DNA of 64,000 nt from Octopus vulgaris (GCA_951406725.2 OX597834.1:3286001-3350000); one strand, 5' to 3'. Counted from the stretch's first letter, positions 13,385-56,250 are shown. Notes: generated by a model not told the origin, from the sequence alone. Numbers and translations are program-made.

Positions 13385-14323
13385 TCACTGATCTGTATGA
13401 GTCCTTATATGTCTAGTTAGGCCACCTTTCTGAGTGAATGCTTTACCACAGATATCACAGTGATATGGTCTCTCTCCTGTATGGACACGTTTGTGAATAA
13501 TTAAGTAACTACTTCCAATGAAGGATTTACCACAGATGTCACAGTGATATGGTCTTTCATCAATATGAAGATGTTTGTGTTTGCCCAAATCACTGCTTCG
13601 AGAGAATGCTTTGTCACAAATATCACAATGAAATGGCCTCTCACCTGTGTGGATACGCTTGTGAATGGTTAACGTACTGCTGGCAGAGAATGCTTTACCA
13701 CAGATTTCACAGTGAAATGGTCTCTCACCTGTATGAATACGTTTATGAGTAGTTAAGTAACTTCCACCTGTGAAAGATTTCCCACAGATATCACAGTTAT
13801 GTGGTTTCTCCCCTGTATGACGACGCTTATGACTGGTTAAGCAATATTTTCTCGAGAATGATCTGCCACAGATGTCACAGAGATATGGCCTCTCGTCTGT
13901 GTGAATGCGTTTGTGTTCATACAAGGTGCTACTAAGAGAGAATGATTTACCACAGATGCCACAGTGATAGGGCCTCTCACCTGTATGAGTGCGTATGTGT
14001 TTGGTTAATTGACTTCCAATGAAGAAAGACATCCCACAGATGTCGCAACGATATGGCTTGTCATCTGTATGAAGGCGTTTGTGTCTCGTTAAATGACAAT
14101 TTACAGGGAACGACTTGCCACAGATATCACACTGATATGGCCTCTCCCCTGTATGAATACTTTTGTGAGCAGTTAAATTAAATTTTAGAGTGAATGTCTT
14201 TTTACAGATATCACACTGATATAAGGTTTTCCCTTTCTTTTTCTTTCTATCATCAGGAAAATCAATCTGTTTAAATAGTTTTTTACATTCAACTTTGTAC
14301 TCGGAGAGTTTGTCTTCCATCAT
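13385..14323 (-). CDS. C2H2 zinc-finger protein ZNF-2 (10 fingers)
   Basis: Ten intact fingers with TGE(K/R)P-type linkers. First ATG at 14323 (MMEDKLSE). Conserved acceptor AG at 14673-14672. Confidence 0.93.
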   Translation of the reverse strand: MMEDKLSEYKVECKKLFKQIDFPDDRKKKKGKTLYQCDICKKTFTLKFNLTAHKSIHTGERPYQCDICGKSFPVNCHLTRHKRLHTDDKPYRCDICGMSFFIGSQLTKHIRTHTGERPYHCGICGKSFSLSSTLYEHKRIHTDERPYLCDICGRSFSRKYCLTSHKRRHTGEKPHNCDICGKSFTGGSYLTTHKRIHTGERPFHCEICGKAFSASSTLTIHKRIHTGERPFHCDICDKAFSRSSDLGKHKHLHIDERPYHCDICGKSFIGSSYLIIHKRVHTGERPYHCDICGKAFTQKGGLTRHIRTHTDQ

Positions 14324-15369
14324 TTTACTTCTCCCACCCACCTCAATATACAGGTGATTTTACTTCTTTTTATTCCAAATAAATATTTCTTCTGCTATAT
14401 CTCCATCAACTGTGATCTTTGTTGATATTTGAAGATGTTGCAAAGTCCTTTGTTATCCAATTTTAATTACAATATAAATTCATTTTCCACTCGTTTCAGA
14501 CAGTGAAACGGAAATTTTGCTGTTCATCTCAGTTCACAGCAAATATTTCACAGTAATTCTACAACAGACTTATATAAACAGGATTAAGTCTGTTCTGCAT
14601 AATTCATTTTTGGTCTCCAAGTAACGAACTCAGTAAGTAATAATTCTTTTATGCCAATGCCATCTGATGTTCTGAAATAAAAGAGAATGAAATATTAAGA
14701 AAACAGAGGATACATAAAATTAAGACTACAACATTTCTTCTATATTGATAAACGGGAGATGGAAACGTTTACCTGAACAATGGAACTCGTCTAATATAAG
14801 CCATTCCTTTTTAAGACCAAAAGTTGACATACATACACACACACACGTACCCCTTTTTCTGAAGATACGATCAAGTAGGGCGAGGAGTTTTGTTTTTTTA
14901 ATGCAAATTAGATGCGTTTCAGAATGTAATGACAAAACATAGCAAAAAAAAAAACAACATATTATTGGCGGTTGTTTGTCAATAGACATGATGGGAGGAG
15001 GGGAGACAGACGTTTGATAAAAACAAAAAAGATAAGCAAAATCTCGATCAAAACAGAGCCAGCAACTCCGAAAGTCCGTCCAAAAACTACGGAGTGAGAC
15101 ATGAGGGAGATATGGGGTTAAAAGACGAGATGGTGAGGGTTGGATCGCTTTCAAAAACAAACTGGGTGGGCATGATTGGAACGTTTTAAAATGACATGAT
15201 GGTCGTGTTTGGAAAGCTTCGAAAGACAGAAGGGCGACACAACACCTTCACAAAAACGTGTTTCCGAACGTCCGCTAGCACACCTGTGCACAAGCTTCAC
15301 CAAACATAAATCAGACCGATTATTTTCGAAGACTACACTTTTGCGTAATTATTCTGCGTAATTCTTGGA

Positions 15370-15680
15370 TTATTCTTCGAAAACAGTGAAAGTATTAAGA
15401 CAACAATATGAAATGTCAGTGAAAGCAAGTTTTTTCACTCGCTATATTACATGTGATAAGAGCAACTTTAGTAAAATGTCTTCTCTTCTTCATTTTCTTT
15501 CCTTCATCTTTGAACAGATCGAAGACAAATCGATGAAGCAGGAAAAGGACAGATTTATAAATGTTGATGCTATTAATGATACTTACATATTGAGAAGCAT
15601 TGGCGAGGATGTCAGAGGCTGGACAACGAATGTTGTGGCTGTTTCTTTCCACAGTTAATTAGCAATCATCTCTAATTAAC
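15370..15680 (-). promoter_or_regulatory. Conserved ZNF 5' module (putative non-coding exon 1, donor and intron start) of ZNF-2
   Basis: Reverse complement of GAGATGATTGCTAATTAACTGTGGAAAG..ATAT|GTAAGTA..AAACTTGCTTT..GTCTTAATACTTTCACTG. Donor at 15586. Homologous blocks lie upstream of six other ZNF loci. Confidence 0.7.
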
Positions 15681-15785
15681 TGGATTACCTAAATACCAAT
15701 AATAAACTGCGTCTCGCCCAGAAACAACAACAAAACCGCGATCAATTCTCTCCAAGGTGTTGGTAAAAATTAGAGTCACTCATAC

Positions 15786-15810
15786 TACTTCCGGTTGTAG
15801 TCTTCCGGTT
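15786..15810. promoter_or_regulatory. Candidate bidirectional core promoter (two ETS sites flanking an ACTACA motif)
   Basis: ACTTCCGGTTGTAGTCTTCCGG in a locally CpG-rich patch between ZNF-2 (-) and the Tigger ORF (+). A ZNF143-like TACCCAGAATGCACTG lies at 16057-16072. Confidence 0.45.
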
Positions 15811-15852
15811 ATCGCAAGTATGGAAATCCATACGGATCCGCGCTAATTCATA

Positions 15853-18327
15853 CTTGCAACCTCGTTCATCACGGACTCGTTCAACGCTCGGCCTGGATAA
15901 CACGGCACGCTTAATTGTAAACCGTGTTATGTTTATCAAGGACTGATATGTAAAAACAAGAGGTCAGGGATCAGTGGAAGATTCTGCTTCCACCGCAAAA
16001 AAATAATAAAATAAACCCACCCTCCCCCTCCAGCAACCATCCCGCTGATGCTCAGCTACCCAGAATGCACTGATTATCACTTGTGTGTACATGACCGTGT
16101 TATGAGGCTGTGTATTTTTTAATACGGATTTATATACTCGAACCTATGAACATGGGACCAACGAAGAGAAACAATACGAAAGCAGCCGATCTGAACAAAC
16201 GACGAAGACGAGTTTATTCTTTACAGGAAAAAGTGGAGATGATCAAGAAAATATACGACGGGGCAAGCTTCGCTGGTGTGGGCCGCGAGTATGGTGTTAA
16301 TGAATCCACCATTCGGTCCATTTACAAAGTGCGTGGAGATATAATGAACGCATTCACGGATGCTGCCCCTAGATCAGTGAGTCGAATAGTCAGAGTCCAT
16401 AAAGATGCTTTTATTCAGTCCATGGAAAAGGCGGTTTATTTGTGGATGCAGGACTGCTACAGTAAGCGGCTTCCTGTGTCAACAAAACGTATCCAGAATC
16501 GTGCTAAGCAAATATATAAGAGCTTGGTTGAGCTTAGTGATGTTGTTGATAAGGACAAATATACTTTTCAAGGTAGCCGTGGGTGGGTACAGAAATTCAT
16601 TAAACGATATAATTTAGCCAGCAAACTTGTTTCAGGTGATGCAACATCAGATGATACAGAGACTACTCGGCGTTATATTGAAGAAATTGATAAAATGGTG
16701 AATGAGGGTGGATATTTACCGTGTCAAGTTTTTAATGCAGTTGAAACAGCCCTTTATTGGAAAAAGATGCCCGAAAAAAGTTACGTAGCGAAAGAGGAGG
16801 CCATAACGACGGGTTTTAAAGACGCCAAAGACCGTGTGTCTCTGTTGTTCTGTTGTAACGGCTCTGGTGATTTTAAAGCTAAACCACTGCTTATACATCG
16901 TTCTGCCCGGCCTCGTCCTTTCCAGAACATTAGCATGTTAACTCTCCCTGTGCACTGGCGTGCTAATAAAAATGGGTGGATGACTAGAGGGGTTTTTGAA
17001 GAGTGGTTCATGACCCACTTTCGCGCTGAAGTGAAAGAATACTGTGCCACAAAGAATATTCCTTTTAAAGCAATTCTTGTGTTAGACAATTGGCCTGGCT
17101 ATTCTACAAACTTAAATGACCTTCAGAATGAAATCAAAGTGATTTATCTACCGCCTAACACTCAGTCATTGCTGCAACCTATGAACCAAGACGTGATGGC
17201 CACATTTAAGCTTCTCTATCTTGACCTTACCTTTGAGGATATACACAAGGCACTGGTGGACGATGACGAACTGACTGTACGGCAATACTGGAAACGATTC
17301 AACATTCTACACGCTGTTCGCTTCATTGGCAAGGCTTGGCAAGCTGTAACTCAAGGATGTCTTTTGAATGGATGGCGCAACCTATTGCCTGACACAACTC
17401 CAGACTTCGTTGGGTTTGAAGAGGATAACATGACTCGAGTTCTGAACATGGCAAAAGCATTACCTGGGGATGGTTTTCAAGACCTCAATGAAAATGACAT
17501 CTGGGATATGATGGAAGCTCCTGAGCGAGAACTAAACGACACAGAGGTGTTGGAATTAGTCGACAAAAGACAAAATGACAGAGGCACAGAGGACGATGAT
17601 GACGGCGACTGTGTCGAGTCTAGTCCAACATTAACCATGTCAAACCTTAAAAAAATAATGTCCTACTATGAGCAGTTGACTCAACTCATACAGGAAGCCG
17701 ATCCAAGTTTTGAGAGAAAAGAATCTGTAACTGCCATTCTAGATGGTGGCATTGCACCCTACAAAGAAATTTATAGGGAACGACAGGCATTAAATAAGCA
17801 GTCGATGATAACTCCTCTCTTTGGCAGTTTTTCTGGTTCTCCAACACCGCAAAAAGAAGAACCAGTATCCAGCCGTTATAGAGCTTTCACTATTAGGTCT
17901 TCTACACCTCGTATCCAAGACTTTGACTCTAAACCAGACTTCTCAGGCATTCTCTCTCTACCGCAATCAGCTCCAACAAACAACGATGACAACACGGAAG
18001 ATGCAGATGACGATTCCAACCTCGTCTAACTCCAGCACACCTTCCTACATTACACTAACTCAGTGGAATCCGTAAGTGTTATATTTTTCACGGTTACATT
18101 TTTTTCTTTTGTACTGATCGTATGTAATTAAATTTTATTATTTTATTCCAACCATGAAACAAAATTATTGCGTATGTTTAAAGACCGTTTGGAGTTCACA
18201 GTTTGGAGTCTCGGAACGAAAAACTATTTTCCCGACGTATTCTATTATTCATTCGTCACGCTTCATTCAACACGTTTCTATTCATCTTTTTTTTTCTTCG
18301 CCCAACCGTGATCAACAAAGATCAATG
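15853..18327 (+). mobile_element. Tigger/pogo DNA transposon footprint with decayed TIRs
   Basis: TA|CTTGCAACCTCGTTCATCACGG (15853-15874) versus CCGTGATCAACAAAGATCAATG|TA (18306-18327): 15/22 complementary, TA flanks on both sides, 2475 bp long. Confidence 0.7.
16146..18029 (+). CDS. Tigger/pogo-derived CENP-B/TIGD-like protein (HTH-psq, CENP-B HTH, DDE_1), probably catalytically dead
   Basis: Uninterrupted ORF. YSLQEKVEMI..VGREYGVNESTIRSI (HTH), MEKAVYLW..GSRGWVQKFIKRY (CENP-B HTH), VFNAVETALYWK / LVLDNWPGY / LLQPMNQD (DD32D spacing with D1>V and D3>N), acidic C-terminal tracts. Confidence 0.88.
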   Translation: MNMGPTKRNNTKAADLNKRRRRVYSLQEKVEMIKKIYDGASFAGVGREYGVNESTIRSIYKVRGDIMNAFTDAAPRSVSRIVRVHKDAFIQSMEKAVYLWMQDCYSKRLPVSTKRIQNRAKQIYKSLVELSDVVDKDKYTFQGSRGWVQKFIKRYNLASKLVSGDATSDDTETTRRYIEEIDKMVNEGGYLPCQVFNAVETALYWKKMPEKSYVAKEEAITTGFKDAKDRVSLLFCCNGSGDFKAKPLLIHRSARPRPFQNISMLTLPVHWRANKNGWMTRGVFEEWFMTHFRAEVKEYCATKNIPFKAILVLDNWPGYSTNLNDLQNEIKVIYLPPNTQSLLQPMNQDVMATFKLLYLDLTFEDIHKALVDDDELTVRQYWKRFNILHAVRFIGKAWQAVTQGCLLNGWRNLLPDTTPDFVGFEEDNMTRVLNMAKALPGDGFQDLNENDIWDMMEAPERELNDTEVLELVDKRQNDRGTEDDDDGDCVESSPTLTMSNLKKIMSYYEQLTQLIQEADPSFERKESVTAILDGGIAPYKEIYRERQALNKQSMITPLFGSFSGSPTPQKEEPVSSRYRAFTIRSSTPRIQDFDSKPDFSGILSLPQSAPTNNDDNTEDADDDSNLV

Positions 18328-18655
18328 TAGTTACATTACAGTCTTCCACCCAAGAAAAGAATGATGAAAATAATTGTAGAAACATAATCACCAATGTCAA
18401 GGAAAAGCATGTTTTGAGGCAGCCAAAATAAAAGATTGCCCGGTTTGGCGATGAGGAATAAGAAGGAGGAAGAGTGACTAAATCTACGTCCTTTAGAAGA
18501 TAAAAGATATGAAAGAGACCAGGAGATATTTAAAGACTTACACTGAATCTAGAGAGACTTAGTTATTCTGTGAGTTTATGATTATATACAATTCTGTTGA
18601 TTCCTTCGTATTGTTTTATAAACACCTTTATTACAGGGTCGGAAGGTGATTGAAT

Positions 18656-19545
18656 TAGAGATGATTGTTGCTAATTAACTGTGGAAAGAAATAGCTACAA
18701 CATTCTTGATTATGTTAATGTGAAAGTACAAGTTAGTAGTCCTGTAAATTTTTAAGCAATTGGCTCTTTTTCCTCACTAAAACTTTTTCAAAGCCTCTGA
18801 TTCCGCCTAATATCAGGGCTGAGTAATTTAATTCCGGGTACTATTTTGACACAAGGAACTATATTACTATTGCACGCACTATAAGTAACTGTTTAATGAT
18901 GACACCGCTTTCTCTTTAGGTTTCCCTCCAAACTCTGGTTGTTATTGTTGTTGTCGTGATCGTGGGGTAACGTGCGGTTTACTATAATATTTCTCGTTTT
19001 AAATCATTTTAAATACTTTAATAAGCAACAAACCTTAAAAAAAGAAAAAAAATCTGTACAGATATTTTGGGGGAAATATTGATATAAATGAAGGTTTGTT
19101 GTAAAATATAGAAGTTGTGTTGAAGCTGTCGATGTCCAGTCTTTGTTGTGACGACTTGAATCTGTCGTGACATCTTCGTCATTGGATCTCTATTAAATAT
19201 GTAAGTATTATTAATAGGAACAACATCTACATTGTATAGATCGCGTCTTCTTTCTACTTCATCTGTTTGTTTTAATGTTTGTTCAAAGAAATTGAAGAAG
19301 AGAAATTTTCCTCAAGTAACGATGCTGTCTTAAATCCCCATACGGTTCAGCTGTCACATATGTAATAGAAGTGAACTGAGAAACTTGCTTTAGCTGAAAT
19401 TACCTATTGTTGTCTGAATATTTTGTTTTCCTTCCTACTCACCATTTCAATTATCATTTTTTTCTTCTAAGATCTTAATGTTAACTCAAAGACAAAGTAT
19501 TTATTCAGGTGAATACACTGTTTAGTCACCAGTTACCTTTATTTA
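18656..19545 (+). promoter_or_regulatory. Conserved ZNF 5' module of ZNF-3 (split by an insertion at ~18725-19085)
   Basis: GCTAATTAACTGTGGAAAGAAATAGCTACAACATTC at ~18670, GTGACATCTTCGTCATTGG, donor GTAAGT at 19201. Acceptor TTTCAG at 19695. Confidence 0.7.
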
Positions 19546-20043
19546 TAACATCGGGCCTACTTTCTTCTGTACAAGCGCCTCGTTGACACGGTATTGTAGA
19601 TCCATGGCTTCGGTTAAAACGTTGACATTTTCTGTTTTTCGTTTATTTCTACGACAATATTTTTTTAATAATTTATACTGTTTCTCTTCTTTCAGAATAT
19701 CATACGACACGGCGACGAAAAGCGTCCCCACCCCCACCACTCAAGCATCTATATCATCTTTTAACGACAAATTGAAATTGTGATGAAGAACAGATATAAG
19801 CCTCTTTTTTATTACTGGAGTAATTAATTGCTAATCACAGAGATTATCTGTAAGATTTTCCTACCCTACCGTACAAGATGATTTATATATTTTGATTAAA
19901 CTTACACTACATAGGAGTTTGTGGTAGCTTCAAATCTCAACAAGGGTCACAGTTGAGTGAAATAATAGCAGAAGGAATATTTGTTAAGAATAAAACCAAA
20001 ACTAACAGAACCATTTGTACATTGTGGTGAGGATCAGAAAATT

Positions 20044-21141
20044 ATGGAAAGGAAATTATGTGAGAACAAGTCTGAAACCCAATTTAAACAGATTAGTTTC
20101 CCTGGTGACATAAATGAAGAGAGAGAAAAAACATTCTATCAATGTGATATCTGTAAGAAGACATTCTCTGTAAAATATAACCTAACTAGTCACAAACGTA
20201 TTCATACAGGTGAAAAACCGCACAAGTGTGACATCTGTGATAAATCCTTCTCTACTGGAAGACATTTAAGAGTACACACACGTGTTCATACAGGAGAGAA
20301 GCCATATCACTGTGATATCTGTGGTAAATCTTGCTCTCAAAGTAATGAATTAATTTCTCACAAACGTATTCACACAGGGGAGAAACCATATCACAGTGAT
20401 ATCTGTGGTAAATCATTCTCTCAAAGTGGGGAAATAATTTCTCACAAACGTGTTCATACTGGAGAGAAACCATATCATTGTAATATCTGTGGTAAATCAT
20501 TCTCTCAAAATGGTAACTTAATTACTCACAAACGTATTCATACAGGAGAAAGGCCATATCACTGTGATATCTGTGGTAAATCATTTACTAAACATAGTGC
20601 TGCAATCAAACACAGACGTATTCATACAGGGGAGAAACCATATCACTGTGATATCTGTGGTAAATCATTTTCTACAAGTTCAAGCTTACCTATTCACAAA
20701 CGGAGTCATACAGGAGAAAGGCCATATCACTGTAAAGTCTGTAGTAAATCATTCTATACAAATAGTGCCTTAGCTACACACAAGTATATTCATACAGGAG
20801 AGAAGCCACATCCCTGTGATATCTGTGGTAAATCATTCTCTTGGAAAAGTGCCTTAACTATTCACAAACGTGTTCATACAGGAGAGAAGCCATATCATTG
20901 TGATAACTGTGGTAGATCATTCTCTGTGAAAGGTGCCTTAACTATTCATAAACGTATTCATACTGGAGAGAAGCCATATCAGTGCACTATCTGTGGTAAA
21001 TCATTCTCTGATGGAAGACAATTAAGTGTACACACACGTGTTCATACGGGAGAGAAACCATATCAGTGTAATGTCTGTGGTAAATCATACTCTCAAAACT
21101 CCAAGTTAACCTCTCATACCATTACTCATGCTAAACAGTAA
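20044..21141 (+). CDS. C2H2 zinc-finger protein ZNF-3 (12 repeats, finger 4 has C>S)
   Basis: Tandem fingers with TGEKP linkers. ATG at 20044 (MERKLCE). Confidence 0.93.
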   Translation: MERKLCENKSETQFKQISFPGDINEEREKTFYQCDICKKTFSVKYNLTSHKRIHTGEKPHKCDICDKSFSTGRHLRVHTRVHTGEKPYHCDICGKSCSQSNELISHKRIHTGEKPYHSDICGKSFSQSGEIISHKRVHTGEKPYHCNICGKSFSQNGNLITHKRIHTGERPYHCDICGKSFTKHSAAIKHRRIHTGEKPYHCDICGKSFSTSSSLPIHKRSHTGERPYHCKVCSKSFYTNSALATHKYIHTGEKPHPCDICGKSFSWKSALTIHKRVHTGEKPYHCDNCGRSFSVKGALTIHKRIHTGEKPYQCTICGKSFSDGRQLSVHTRVHTGEKPYQCNVCGKSYSQNSKLTSHTITHAKQ

Positions 21142-28979: not shown

Positions 28980-29755
28980 TTGGTCATTTCATTTTTGTTG
29001 ACGTCGCTTCAAAGGTAAACCAAAATCTCAGCTAAAATATAATATAGTGAGTTTTTCGACTCACTTATATGTGAAAGGCGACCGGGCGAGGATGAAGACA
29101 TCTTCACTTTCTTTCCTTTATAGTTGAACACATCAAAACAAACAGATGTAAGAGAAAAATGACACAAACCTATACAATGTAAATGTTTCTATTAATAATA
29201 CTTACATATTAATGATGTGGAGATGTGGTGAAGCGGGAAGAAAAGGTGAGCAACGTCAATGGCTGAGGGGCCCCTACTGGAAGAGGAAGAATGGGTGCGG
29301 TCACGTGGGTACGTGTGGGACCAGCTCAGGGGTCTTCTTCTCCTCGGTTCGTGGGAGCGGAGGAATGTGTGTAGACGTGCGAACGAGAAAGGTTCTAGCG
29401 ATAGATTAGACGGGTGGGGCGCATCTCGGATCTAACCCTGTTGGACTGACAACGCTGAGGGGTAGATGCATCGCACCCTGTTCCTCGCATTAACAATATA
29501 GCGCCAATGACGAAGAATTCACGAGTCAGGATGGAAAATGAAGGCTTCAACACAATTTCCAATTTACAACAAACCTTCGATTAGATTTTTACATCGACAT
29601 AATAAAGAATTTGTTGTTTACGTCTGACATCTCGATACGAAACGTTGTAACAAAAAATCAGTGCTGGTTATAATTTCTGTAGACATAAGCATCACAAAAT
29701 AATAAAGAATATTATAGCTATTTCTTTCCACAGTTAATTAGCAATCATCTCTATT
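28980..29755 (-). promoter_or_regulatory. Conserved ZNF 5' module of ZNF-4
   Basis: CTTTCCACAGTTAATTAGCAATCATCTC at ~29725-29751. Donor (ACTTAC) at 29200-29205. Interrupted at 29213-29489. Confidence 0.7.
29213..29489. mobile_element. GC-rich 277-bp insertion, TG...CA ends with TTAA duplication (solo-LTR-like)
   Basis: TTAA|TGATGTGG...CCTCGCA|TTAA. Absent from the homologous module at the other ZNF loci. Confidence 0.55.
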
Positions 29756-31096
29756 TAATTGCATCCTCTAAATGTGAGTTGTAAACCAGATCTGAACCAA
29801 CAATAAACATGCTTGTCAGACAATTGCAGGGAATCAACAGAATTCTTTCGCCAGTTTTAACCATTTTCTGCTAAGGGACGTCACTCTGACCTGCAGAGGC
29901 ATTATCTACCTGTTCAGCTGTCTTTATTATAATTAGATTTTGGGTATTTCATTATATAACCCCTATAGATTACAATTTCCGATGTAAAGTTTTCAGCTGT
30001 AACTCACCCCCGCCCCGTTAACTTGAGATGGTTTTCTAATTTCCGGCAAATTCGATGAAATCGCCGGGTGATTTTAGGTTAACGTTCCTCAAATTCTTCC
30101 TCGAATGCTTGTTACTCTTGTGGCAAATAAGTATCAGTCGAGCACTGGGGTCGGGATATCGACTAGTCCTGACCCCCACCTAAAAATTTAAGGTCTGCGT
30201 CAGGCGCGGCTTAGGCACTGGAACTGCCAAGTACACTGACAACCATCACTTGACGTCTCGGGTAAGGAGAACCGTAAACGATTACAAGAATTTCGCTGTC
30301 AGCGACCCAGCACCTCCAAAAGTCTCTAACGCCACAAGCTGGAAGAAATGGTTCACTGACAAGTCCCTATACTAAAGGCTTTTATTCGACTGACTGACAT
30401 ATTTTGATTCGTTGTCCTACTTCGCTTACGAAACTGAATAAGTTTTTTTTCTTTTGTCCCTCCTGTGTTATGCCATCGCATATAAATCATGTACAAGTCA
30501 TACGCTTGCGTAGTTAGTGGGGAACGGTAGGGGCGGCACTTTTAAAGGGGTCGGACTTTTGGGTCTGCTGTAGGCAATGTTTTTTGTGGGGTTCGGGGGC
30601 GGTAAACAGAAGGGCTGCACATACTCTAGCTACTCTTGTGAAGTCATGTACTGTCAGTTACTAACTAATTTAAAATATTTGTTTCATTACTTTAAATGTT
30701 TATAATATTTAAATAAAATTGTGACTCTCTCCGGACACCCGTACGACTAATTTGATAACTTCTCGGCTTCAACCATAGCGAAACTTACACAAGTGTGATG
30801 ATCTTTGCGAGACAAGAGTTCATTTTAATTGTTTCCTTCGCCAACTTATACAAAATACCACAATAGGGAGTTGAATTAACATTCACAGACGACGAAGATG
30901 TGAAGTGATGCTGTTGGAAATGTCAAATGGGACAACGAAGTGCGGAAAGCCGTGGTTATCGCCCCTCACCCATTAATTCTGTTGTTTGGTAAGCAAAATA
31001 ATAATGAAATTATTGTATACAGTGCTCAGGTGCACCACATCTTAATTACTGGGTCAGTTCTTGTTTTAAACTGACATTCAGGGGATCCGGTTCAAT

Positions 31097-31510
31097 AGAG
31101 ATGATTGCTAATTATCTGTGGAAAGAAATGGCTACAACATTCTTTATTATGTCAATGTGAAAATCCAAATAAAGGTTCGTTGTAAAATATAGAAGTTGTG
31201 TTGAAGCTGTCATTGTCCAGTCTGAGTTGTGACTACTTGAATCTATCATGACATCTTCGCCATTGGCTCTTAAGTAATATTGAAGTATTATTAACAGAAA
31301 CAACATCTACATTGTACAGGTCGTGTCCTCTTTCTACTACATCTGTTTGTTTGGATGTGTTAAAAAATAAAGGAAAGAAAGTGAAGTAAAGAAGAACTAT
31401 ATTGTCTTAATCCTCATACGGTAGACTGTCACATATAGTGAGTTGAAAAACTTGCTTTAGCTGACTTTTGTTGTCTTAATACTTTCACTTTTTCTCTTTC
31501 CGCACTCCAT
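31097..31510 (+). promoter_or_regulatory. Conserved ZNF 5' module of pseudogene ZNF-5 (donor mutated)
   Basis: GAGATGATTGCTAATTATCTGTGGAAAG start. The donor position reads TGAAGT at 31281 instead of GTAAGT. Confidence 0.7.
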
Positions 31511-54945: not shown

Positions 54946-55754
54946 TCACACACACACACACGCACAAAAACACGTATGTATGTCTGTATGTGTGTGTGAA
55001 TGAGATGATATAGCAGTTACTGATGATTTATTGAATTGTTAACGCTGAACAGGACACTCAGCCTTGTTACTCCTTTTTATCTGCTGACGGGATGAAATAA
55101 TTTGTAGTAAAATGACTAGATTTCTGTTCTTTGTTGAATGAAGATGAAAGTGTCACAACTGAGGAAAGAACTCCTTGAAGTAAATTGACTGATATTGATG
55201 TTAACGTCGGGTGGTCTTCGTCGCCATATTTCTTTGGTATTTTGTCAACAGGCGTGCTTCAGGTAAGTTATTTTACATTAGGTGTAGGTTAGATTCGCTT
55301 AATTTTTTTTTTGTCGTGTATGGACGTTTTTCAAGAAAAATTGTTTTTATTTATGTTACAGAATAACAAGAAATTTTTTTTAATCATGTAATAAACGTTT
55401 TATTTTTTTAAAATATGATATAGCATGACTTTTGAGAAATTTAGCTGCTATTTCTAGTAAGCTGATTGACCATGTACAGGCATCTTCGTTCCACCTTTGT
55501 GAAAAAGCATTTCTAAAATGAAATATTTACAACACCACCACCCAAAGCCAATCTCATGGACTACGACTATAATACTGGTGAAAGGATCTCTTTTCTTCTC
55601 TTTTGATACAAAAAAAAAATCCCTTAGACTTAATTTTTCTAAACAAATTGAAATTATTAATATACACCAATGTGAGGGAAGTAATAATTTTTTTTTTTTT
55701 TCACCTCGCTGAAAATTCATCTCCCTCATTTTTATTAATTGTAGACGTTAATTA

Positions 55755-56250
55755 ATAGACGATTGCTAATTAACTGCGGACAGAAATGGCTTCAGCATTC
55801 TTTATTATGTCGATGTGAAGAATCTAAAAACGTAGGTTTGTCGCAAAATATAGAAGTTGTGTCGAAGCAGTGGATGTCCAGTCTTAGCTGCGACGACTTG
55901 AATCTGTCGTGACATCTTCGTCTTTGGCTCCGGATTAAGATGCAAGTATCATTAATAGGAACCACACCCACATTGTTCAGGTCGTGGCATTTTCTGTTTG
56001 TTTTGATGTGTTCAAAGGTAAAAGAAAGAAAACGAAGAGATGGAATTTACCTGTCTCAATCATAATCCGGTCGGCTCTCAACCGAAGTGAGTTGAAAAAC
56101 TTGCTTTACATGACATTAATTAATTGTTGTCTTAATACTTTCACTGTTTTCCTTTTCAATTATCGTTACCCCCCCCCCCCATAACTCAAACTGAAAGTTT
56201 GTATTTCTTAAAGTCACTTCAATGCATTGTTTTCTCACCATTTACCTTTA
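55755..56250 (+). promoter_or_regulatory. Conserved ZNF 5' module of ZNF-8
   Basis: GATTGCTAATTAACTGCGGAC..GTGACATCTTCGTC. The donor reads GCAAGT at 55942. An extra upstream CAG|GTAAGT donor at 55263 follows a YY1-like CGCCATATT. Acceptor at 59237. Confidence 0.65.

Follow-up and report, generated by a model that had tools for sequence, protein, structure and literature searches.

Within a 64,000-nucleotide window of the Octopus vulgaris genome (the whole stretch of DNA analysed here), positions 15853..18327 of the plus strand hold a Tigger (pogo superfamily) element whose transposase-derived reading frame is maintained by purifying selection in Octopus. We consider it highly probable that this is a domesticated Tigger gene, and its mRNA is likely a two-ORF transcript in which the exon carrying the transposase ORF is joined to the coding exon of the C2H2 zinc-finger gene to its right. 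The explanation that we favor as a whole, to which we assign a probability of roughly two in three, is that of a selected, triad-poor Tigger gene that likely acts as a host regulator and likely uses a two-way promoter belonging to the zinc-finger genes. The kind of gene is known already; what is new is the arrangement, namely the probable sharing of a transcript with a zinc-finger gene.

Structure of the element and its open reading frame

The element spans 2475 bp between two decayed 22-bp terminal inverted repeats (TIRs), at 15853..15874 on the plus strand and 18306..18327 on the minus strand. These match at 15 of 22 positions, and a TA target-site copy lies outside each (15851..15852 and 18328..18329, plus strand), which is the same count and the same flanks as in a preliminary description of this DNA. 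The TIR match is weak on its own, as 2 of the ~64,000 reverse-strand positions in the window reach 15/22; the right TIR is nevertheless the best match within 18030-19000, where the runner-up reaches 12. Sibling alignments (four 5′ ends and nine 3′ ends, judged by eye) lose similarity near the element boundaries, which supports the assigned ends. We also considered a 43-nt inverted repeat at 15628 and 18663 as an outer TIR, but it was rejected when the sequence proved to be a leader motif present at five places among the zinc-finger genes of the window.

The interior of the element is occupied by a single-exon transposase-derived ORF of 627 aa (16146..18029, plus strand), which reads through without a stop, as had been described. 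A second ATG, at 16152, has a better context than the first and aligns with the start of a lobster relative; seven short upstream ATGs lie between 15820 and 16102. Three Pfam domains, all of which exceed the curated cut-off, fall within this one ORF on the plus strand, the combination expected of a Tigger (pogo) transposase: a CENP-B_N helix-turn-helix with the basic stretch KRRRR (aa 18-66, 16197..16343, E 1e-8), an HTH_Tnp_Tc5 helix-turn-helix (aa 92-160, 16419..16625, E 2e-13) and a DDE_1 match (aa 228-410, 16827..17375, E 2e-41). The short TIRs, the TA target duplication and the size of 2-3 kb likewise agree with the norms given for the family in PMC9219625.

The intact DDD triad of an active autonomous transposon is absent. 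The D1 position reads V (V199, GTT at 16740..16742) and the D3 position reads N (N347, AAC at 17184..17186), while D2 is intact (D314, GAC at 17085); the three codons are in frame on the plus strand and, together with the two intact helix-turn-helix domains, are as the preliminary description had them. The D2-to-D3 spacing of 32 residues is inside the 29-36 range for Tigger (pogo) (PMC7386202). In an AlphaFold model of the protein (mean pLDDT 68, pTM 0.43) the helix-turn-helix and RNase H-like regions are ordered, residues 498-560 form a long helical pair and the tail is disordered; the model's best match among solved structures is the Mos1 transposase (E 9e-4, the sole one of 204 below 0.001).

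Two points that the preliminary description made about the triad are not supported. The new Asp two residues past D3 (D349), raised as a caveat to complete inactivity, offers no rescue; this position is E in the second copy of the gene, the orthologues and the lobster relative, and D349 is an E-to-D change confined to the window branch. Loss of the aspartates had also been tied to domestication, but among broken siblings D1 reads D, S, C, and N (n = 4) and D3 reads D, N, D, N, and D (n = 5). Since both positions already vary there, the losses cannot clearly be assigned to the domesticated lineage alone, and on these alignments the triad loss may be earlier than domestication. We looked for subfamilies that might account for N at D3 and found none, the sibling tree being star-like with supports of 31-64.

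A second intact copy and purifying selection on the ORF

The block 14368..21009 matches C21:23030797-23037580 (reverse) as a 6.6-kb segmental duplication, which carries a second intact copy of the gene (630 aa) 20 Mb away. The two copies are 94% identical at the DNA level, and because they share their flanks from 14368 to 21009 the second is a segmental duplicate and not a product of transposition. When the octopus's own genome was searched with the protein, 70 of 2825 candidates were scored and there were 73 matches; the two above 60% identity are the window locus and C21:23.03 Mb (96%). At the DNA level 40 of 378 candidates were scored and there were 47 matches, 2 full and 45 partial at 67-79%, with no near-identical dispersed copies bearing matching TIRs among the 40 candidates scored. 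The copy-number check suggested earlier, for which a single copy was the expectation, thus returned two copies, a number that is still low. We examined seven sibling loci overlapping the ORF, counting two loci of a single C4 copy as one, and each is broken by stops and several frameshift gaps, with 49 stops in 2313 aligned codons. In a tree of six siblings, which is star-like, the sibling branches measure 0.17-0.26 vs ~0.10 for the intact lineage.

Selection was measured both from the divergence of the copies and branch by branch, within the species' own genome. Between the copies there are 30 synonymous differences at 419 sites and 29 non-synonymous differences at 1459 (dN 0.020, dS 0.075, dN/dS 0.27, Fisher p 1.2e-6). 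In neutral simulations run 5000 times for each of three transition ratios, this value was reached no more than once per ratio. The two copies differ by 35 indels, of which 2 are inside the ORF and both of those are multiples of 3 (p 2.5e-6). Divergence is 6.6% in the flanks, 6.0% in the non-coding DNA of the element and 3.1% in the ORF, where synonymous sites (7.2%) have diverged about as the flanks and non-coding DNA have (6.0-6.6%) and non-synonymous sites by 2.0%. When the changes are polarised by the siblings (16 of 56 tested codons are unpolarised by DNA, and gapped codons 589-595 were left out), the window branch has 14 synonymous and 15 non-synonymous changes (dN/dS 0.31, p 0.002-0.02) and the branch of the other copy has 7 and 4 (dN/dS 0.16, p 0.004-0.02). 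Measured against the sibling majority, the window copy shows 41 synonymous and 78 non-synonymous codon differences, compared with 162 and 557 in the siblings (p 0.008).

Orthologues and wider relatives

Orthologue records with an open frame that also carry V199 and N347 come from O. bimaculoides (93%) and O. sinensis (96%), in addition to record P0003 (86%); the second copy likewise reads V and N at these positions. Identity across the orthologues is 94-98% in both helix-turn-helix domains, 90-96% in the DDE region and 68-92% in the tail, and the O. sinensis record is identical, in the alignment, to the second copy. In a quick tree the O. bimaculoides protein branches off before the two copies separate (support 98), which dates the duplication to after the split from O. 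bimaculoides. A more recent gene model for that species (P0041) has zinc-finger sequence at its end, which would fit the same neighborhood there.

The next relatives are a Homarus americanus protein, P0004 (62%, with S at D1 and D at D3), and P0005 (47%, with a full triad). The quick tree, which took in Tigger-like proteins but neither human TIGD nor CENP-B sequences, groups the gene with lobster P0004 and P0005 among those proteins (support 100). Protein searches returned no named squid, cuttlefish or nautilus member (39, 39, and 6 hits, respectively), which is weak evidence of absence; with every named orthologue belonging to Octopus, the "cephalopod-lineage" label of the preliminary description is too wide. 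The similarity to the lobster relative suggests horizontal transfer, perhaps with parallel domestication, and Tigger elements are described as moving often between animals (PMC9219625). Two further features of the lobster sequences were observed: P0004 reaches 77% in the DDE region and is also without D1, and a gene model, P0038, joins part of a P0004-like sequence to a Harbinger-like ALP1 domain.

A probable transcript shared with a zinc-finger gene

The element sits between two head-to-head C2H2 zinc-finger genes, the left on the minus strand (an ORF of 324 codons from stop to stop, 13385..14359) and the right on the plus strand (365 aa, 20044..21141). Leader motifs flank it at 15628-15680 and 18653-18705, and without the element these would be ~0.5 kb apart. 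The early non-coding exon of the left gene (15587..15684, minus strand) is spliced across 14672-15586, since X3 record 29 joins 14671 to 15587 with GT-AG ends. Its homologue on the right (18653..19200, plus strand, with an interruption of ~350 nt) is the right gene's own leader, which ends at a GTAAGT donor past 19200 and is followed by the acceptor and 5′ untranslated part of the coding exon (19696..20043, plus strand). ETS-like motifs mark two-way promoters, and the two ETS-like CTTCCGGT motifs in the head-to-head gap (15787..15809), which are 2 of the 4 in the window, are likely part of such a promoter; a deletion in the second copy removes one of them.

Four of 24 listed runs, presumed to be RNA, were compared as contigs, which carry no strand, start or single-molecule information; uncovered bins were given no weight, save for the stretch spanned by X3 record 30. 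This record (2516 nt) follows 16062-18071 with 7 differing letters and then continues at 19696-20208 across a GT-AG junction. The exon end at 18071 is 42 nt past the transposase stop and coincides with a splice donor inside the element (18071..18077, plus strand, the exon end being followed by GTAAGT). X14 record 15, which has the second copy's letters and indels, also ends at 18071, with 75 letters beyond, and X14 has differences of equal depth at 19725-19741. The donor and the acceptor are both conserved in the second copy. The single close sibling that covers the post-stop donor differs there, and the donor may or may not have come with the element. Pieces from X14 and X15 that begin at 15767 and 15804 run into the element across the left TIR. 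In X13, 133 letters of a contig precede 19696. Bin 19150-19383 has a depth of 1.77 in this run, equal to 51 x 8.12 / 234, which points, by depth arithmetic and with no listed joint, to a Tigger-free exon ending at 19200. The physical link to the zinc-finger genes is therefore closer than was previously thought, because it extends to a shared splice junction. For the junction observed we rejected an in-frame transposase-finger fusion of the POGZ or KRAB-transposase type, as the transposase ORF stops at 18029, ahead of that junction, and the finger ORF has a separate start at 20044. A stop within 50-55 nt of a junction spares mammalian mRNAs from decay, and the transposase stop is inside this distance.

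The leader motif is partly palindromic and occurs in the window at 15628-15680, 18653-18731, 29696-29773, 31076-31168, and 55747-55819, as well as at 6 places within the 50 kb surrounding the second copy. The spliced early exon of the left gene contains it, and it could possibly be a shared regulatory or RNA element. The zinc-finger genes that were duplicated with the element (20044-21141 and C21:23030749-23031819) have a nearly unchanged N-terminus and first finger, but there has been turnover among their inner fingers and the second copy lacks one finger, a far faster change than that of the Tigger ORF. For this pair pS is 0.24 and pN 0.14, with a dN/dS that is unreliable because of the turnover.

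Proposed origin and function

The domestication proposed in the preliminary description is supported by the dN/dS of 0.27 between intact copies, the broken siblings, the orthologues sharing V and N, and the spliced contig. As to how the gene arose, we propose that the element landed at a TA inside the ~0.5 kb gap of the two-way promoter, and that the insertion captured rightward transcription from the promoter of the zinc-finger genes. The transposase ORF would then be translated as the first ORF of the mRNA, with the zinc-finger ORF riding second on the joined molecule, while the zinc-finger protein would probably be made mainly from the Tigger-free isoform via its own exon. The Tigger protein is, in our judgment, probably a DNA-binding regulator that does not cut. 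From what is known of the family, we infer that it would bind DNA through both helix-turn-helix domains, with motifs resembling the ends of its family as the most likely targets, and that the dead DDE fold and the C-terminal helices would serve dimer or partner contacts. The gene would have been kept for this DNA-binding protein, with the duplication coming later. The family end motif, allowing one mismatch, occurs twice in the window, once inside a TIR, and 5 of 100 shuffles also reach two occurrences; local binding targets near the gene are thus not evident.

An unlikely alternative accepts the domestication and takes the window copy for a redundant duplicate drifting to loss, the work being done by the other C21 copy. 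The window branch is ~3x longer (0.023 vs 0.008 at the DNA level), and of the amino-acid changes since the duplication, as polarised by the orthologues, 17 are in the window copy and 4 in the other (6 unresolved). C316W, two residues past D2, is among the window-copy changes. With most of the changes on its side, the window copy is, judged from these substitutions, the less constrained of the two, and three of the four compared runs have mostly the second copy's letters. However, the window branch is still synonymous-rich (14 of 29 changes), its frame is open, and X3 record 30 is a window-type contig with the splice junction. A separate observation on the letters of the two copies comes from an X13 contig (organism B) at 16720-17568, which agrees with the letters of the second copy across 17314-17537 and departs from them at several sites within 16987-17148; this mixture may be gene conversion, another species' allele or an assembly mosaic.

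The protein might instead have been kept to act against Tigger elements, through a dominant-negative effect or competition for binding sites, that is, as a transposon repressor and not a regulator of host genes. This would accord with the retention of the DNA-binding domains and the loss of catalysis, with the family end fragments spread across many chromosomes, and with the presence in the genome of a younger Tigger family of 40 or more copies. We regard it as improbable, because the gene's own family is long dead (siblings 27-34% apart) and yet selection persisted through the recent duplication, and because the younger family belongs to another clade and is ~32% identical.

It is very improbable that a nuclease or end-processing activity was kept with a changed active site. 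In DDD/E enzymes the metal is bound by D and not by V or N, so the residues at D1 and D3 could not bind it as D does. The kept D2, the high identity of the DDE region among orthologues and the RNase H-like fold of the model could be read in favor of such an activity, and the S at D1 of the lobster relative and the 3 of 4 siblings without D1 would allow that the family is atypical at this position. Against this, aa 166-430, the catalytic region, have the highest dN/dS between the copies (0.42), and vertebrate domesticated genes keep the domain and lose the triad (PMC7386202). Least credible of all is a young or lucky transposon copy, its frame open by chance or through low mutation at a promoter: the promoter-like location, where mutation may be lower, and the flank divergence of only 6-7% between the copies would suit it, but 13 stops are expected in the ORF at the siblings' rate, synonymous sites have diverged like the flanks, near-identical dispersed copies were absent from the 40 of 378 candidates scored, and the copy dN/dS, branch and indel statistics all contradict it.

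Comparison with known domesticated transposases

A domesticated Tigger gene of this type resembles vertebrate TIGD2, TIGD5, TIGD7, JRK, JRKL, CENPBD1, and primate TIGD1 in its domain order and changed triad. Vertebrate Tigger-derived genes have Ka/Ks well under 1 (0.055-0.21; PMC7386202), and two-way promoters host 8 of 13 human ones (PMC2777200). Unlike these, the octopus gene is of independent origin, from an invertebrate Tigger clade with a lobster relative at 62%, its TIRs and TA flanks are visible, it is present in two copies, and it is spliced to a zinc-finger gene. CENP-B and fission-yeast Abp1/Cbh have a homologous DNA-binding domain, with weak similarity only; a profile search matched CENP-B(1-129) (1hlv_A) at E 2.3e-5.

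A parallel to the arrangement is mammalian ZBED6 in ZC3H11A, likewise a domesticated transposase ORF ahead of zinc-finger coding exons, in which promoter and transcript are shared and shorter host transcripts lack ZBED6 (PMC2780926). ZBED6 differs from the octopus gene in being hAT-derived and single copy, in arising via retained introns and in having a CCCH finger host, whereas the octopus gene uses a donor located inside the element and has as its host a C2H2 cluster gene that changes fast. The locus would thus extend a two-ORF arrangement like that of ZBED6 to the zinc-finger cluster of an invertebrate.

The O. bimaculoides orthologue (XP_014768235 / LOC106867769, 92-93% identical) appears as Ob_67769, a row of class HTH-Psq among transposon-derived transcription factors, in supplement file 3 of PMC10027918. 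That study already states pogo domestication in the Octopus lineage and reports a family-wide Ka/Ks; the sections of it available to us contain no triad, duplication or shared transcript for Ob_67769, and "synteny" is absent from its main text. In the literature searched, which lay mostly outside subscription papers, we found no description of the shared transcript of this locus. The strings tigger, pogo and domesticat are absent from PMC12988792, and PMC12513265, which does not contain tigger, terms the link between finger expansion and transposon control an open question. With the present results, a database-listed octopus "TIGD1-like" record becomes a well-supported domestication whose history appears to be visible: insertion in a two-way promoter, capture of transcription, splicing to a host gene and later duplication.

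Other Tigger loci in the octopus genome

A further open Tigger ORF, of 564 aa and from another clade, lies at C13:73940249-73941943. The 10 siblings examined carry 2-8 stops each, and the ORF shows 27 synonymous and 36 non-synonymous differences against the siblings' 227 and 659 (p 0.005), so that it is apparently under purifying selection. It has N at D1, where 10 of 10 siblings have D, and a donor-like GTATGT 11 nt past its stop; within C13:73935174-73941943 a zinc-finger ORF lies 3.7 kb downstream on the same strand. If this copy has the same arrangement as the window gene, the clusters would be repeated sites of transposase capture. That Tigger transposases are captured time and again by octopus C2H2 clusters, to serve as dead first ORFs that are co-transcribed, with the window gene and the unrelated, younger C13 copy as examples, is a doubtful proposition at present, under which the family of the window gene was perhaps horizontally acquired, given its 62% lobster relative. 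Were it true, transposases would supply DNA-binding or effector partners to the finger family. Enrichment of intact Tigger loci near zinc-finger genes was not demonstrated, with 2 of 6 independent intact loci vs 2 of 11 broken ones; here the window pair counts as one locus, one broken locus has only 2 linker motifs, and the frameshifted copy at C21:40.75 Mb is included.

Four more long open pogo/Tigger ORFs were noted, at C17:62131476-62133323, C23:19219257-19221125, C19:24184946-24186676, and C3:101822514-101824211. All have D1 intact and no zinc-finger motif within ~10 kb, and by eye the C17 and C3 ORFs resemble O. bimaculoides Ob_76935 and Ob_72090 of PMC10027918; searches for an exact match to three other intact ORFs had no hit. 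A frameshifted Tigger at C21:40748398-40750148 (S at D1, N at D2) lies between two zinc-finger ORFs and is 86% identical to the intact C17 copy. Elsewhere in the window, two GC-richer repeat blocks at 1-600 and 1430-2010 are nearly the same in sequence, and both strands carry long open frames.
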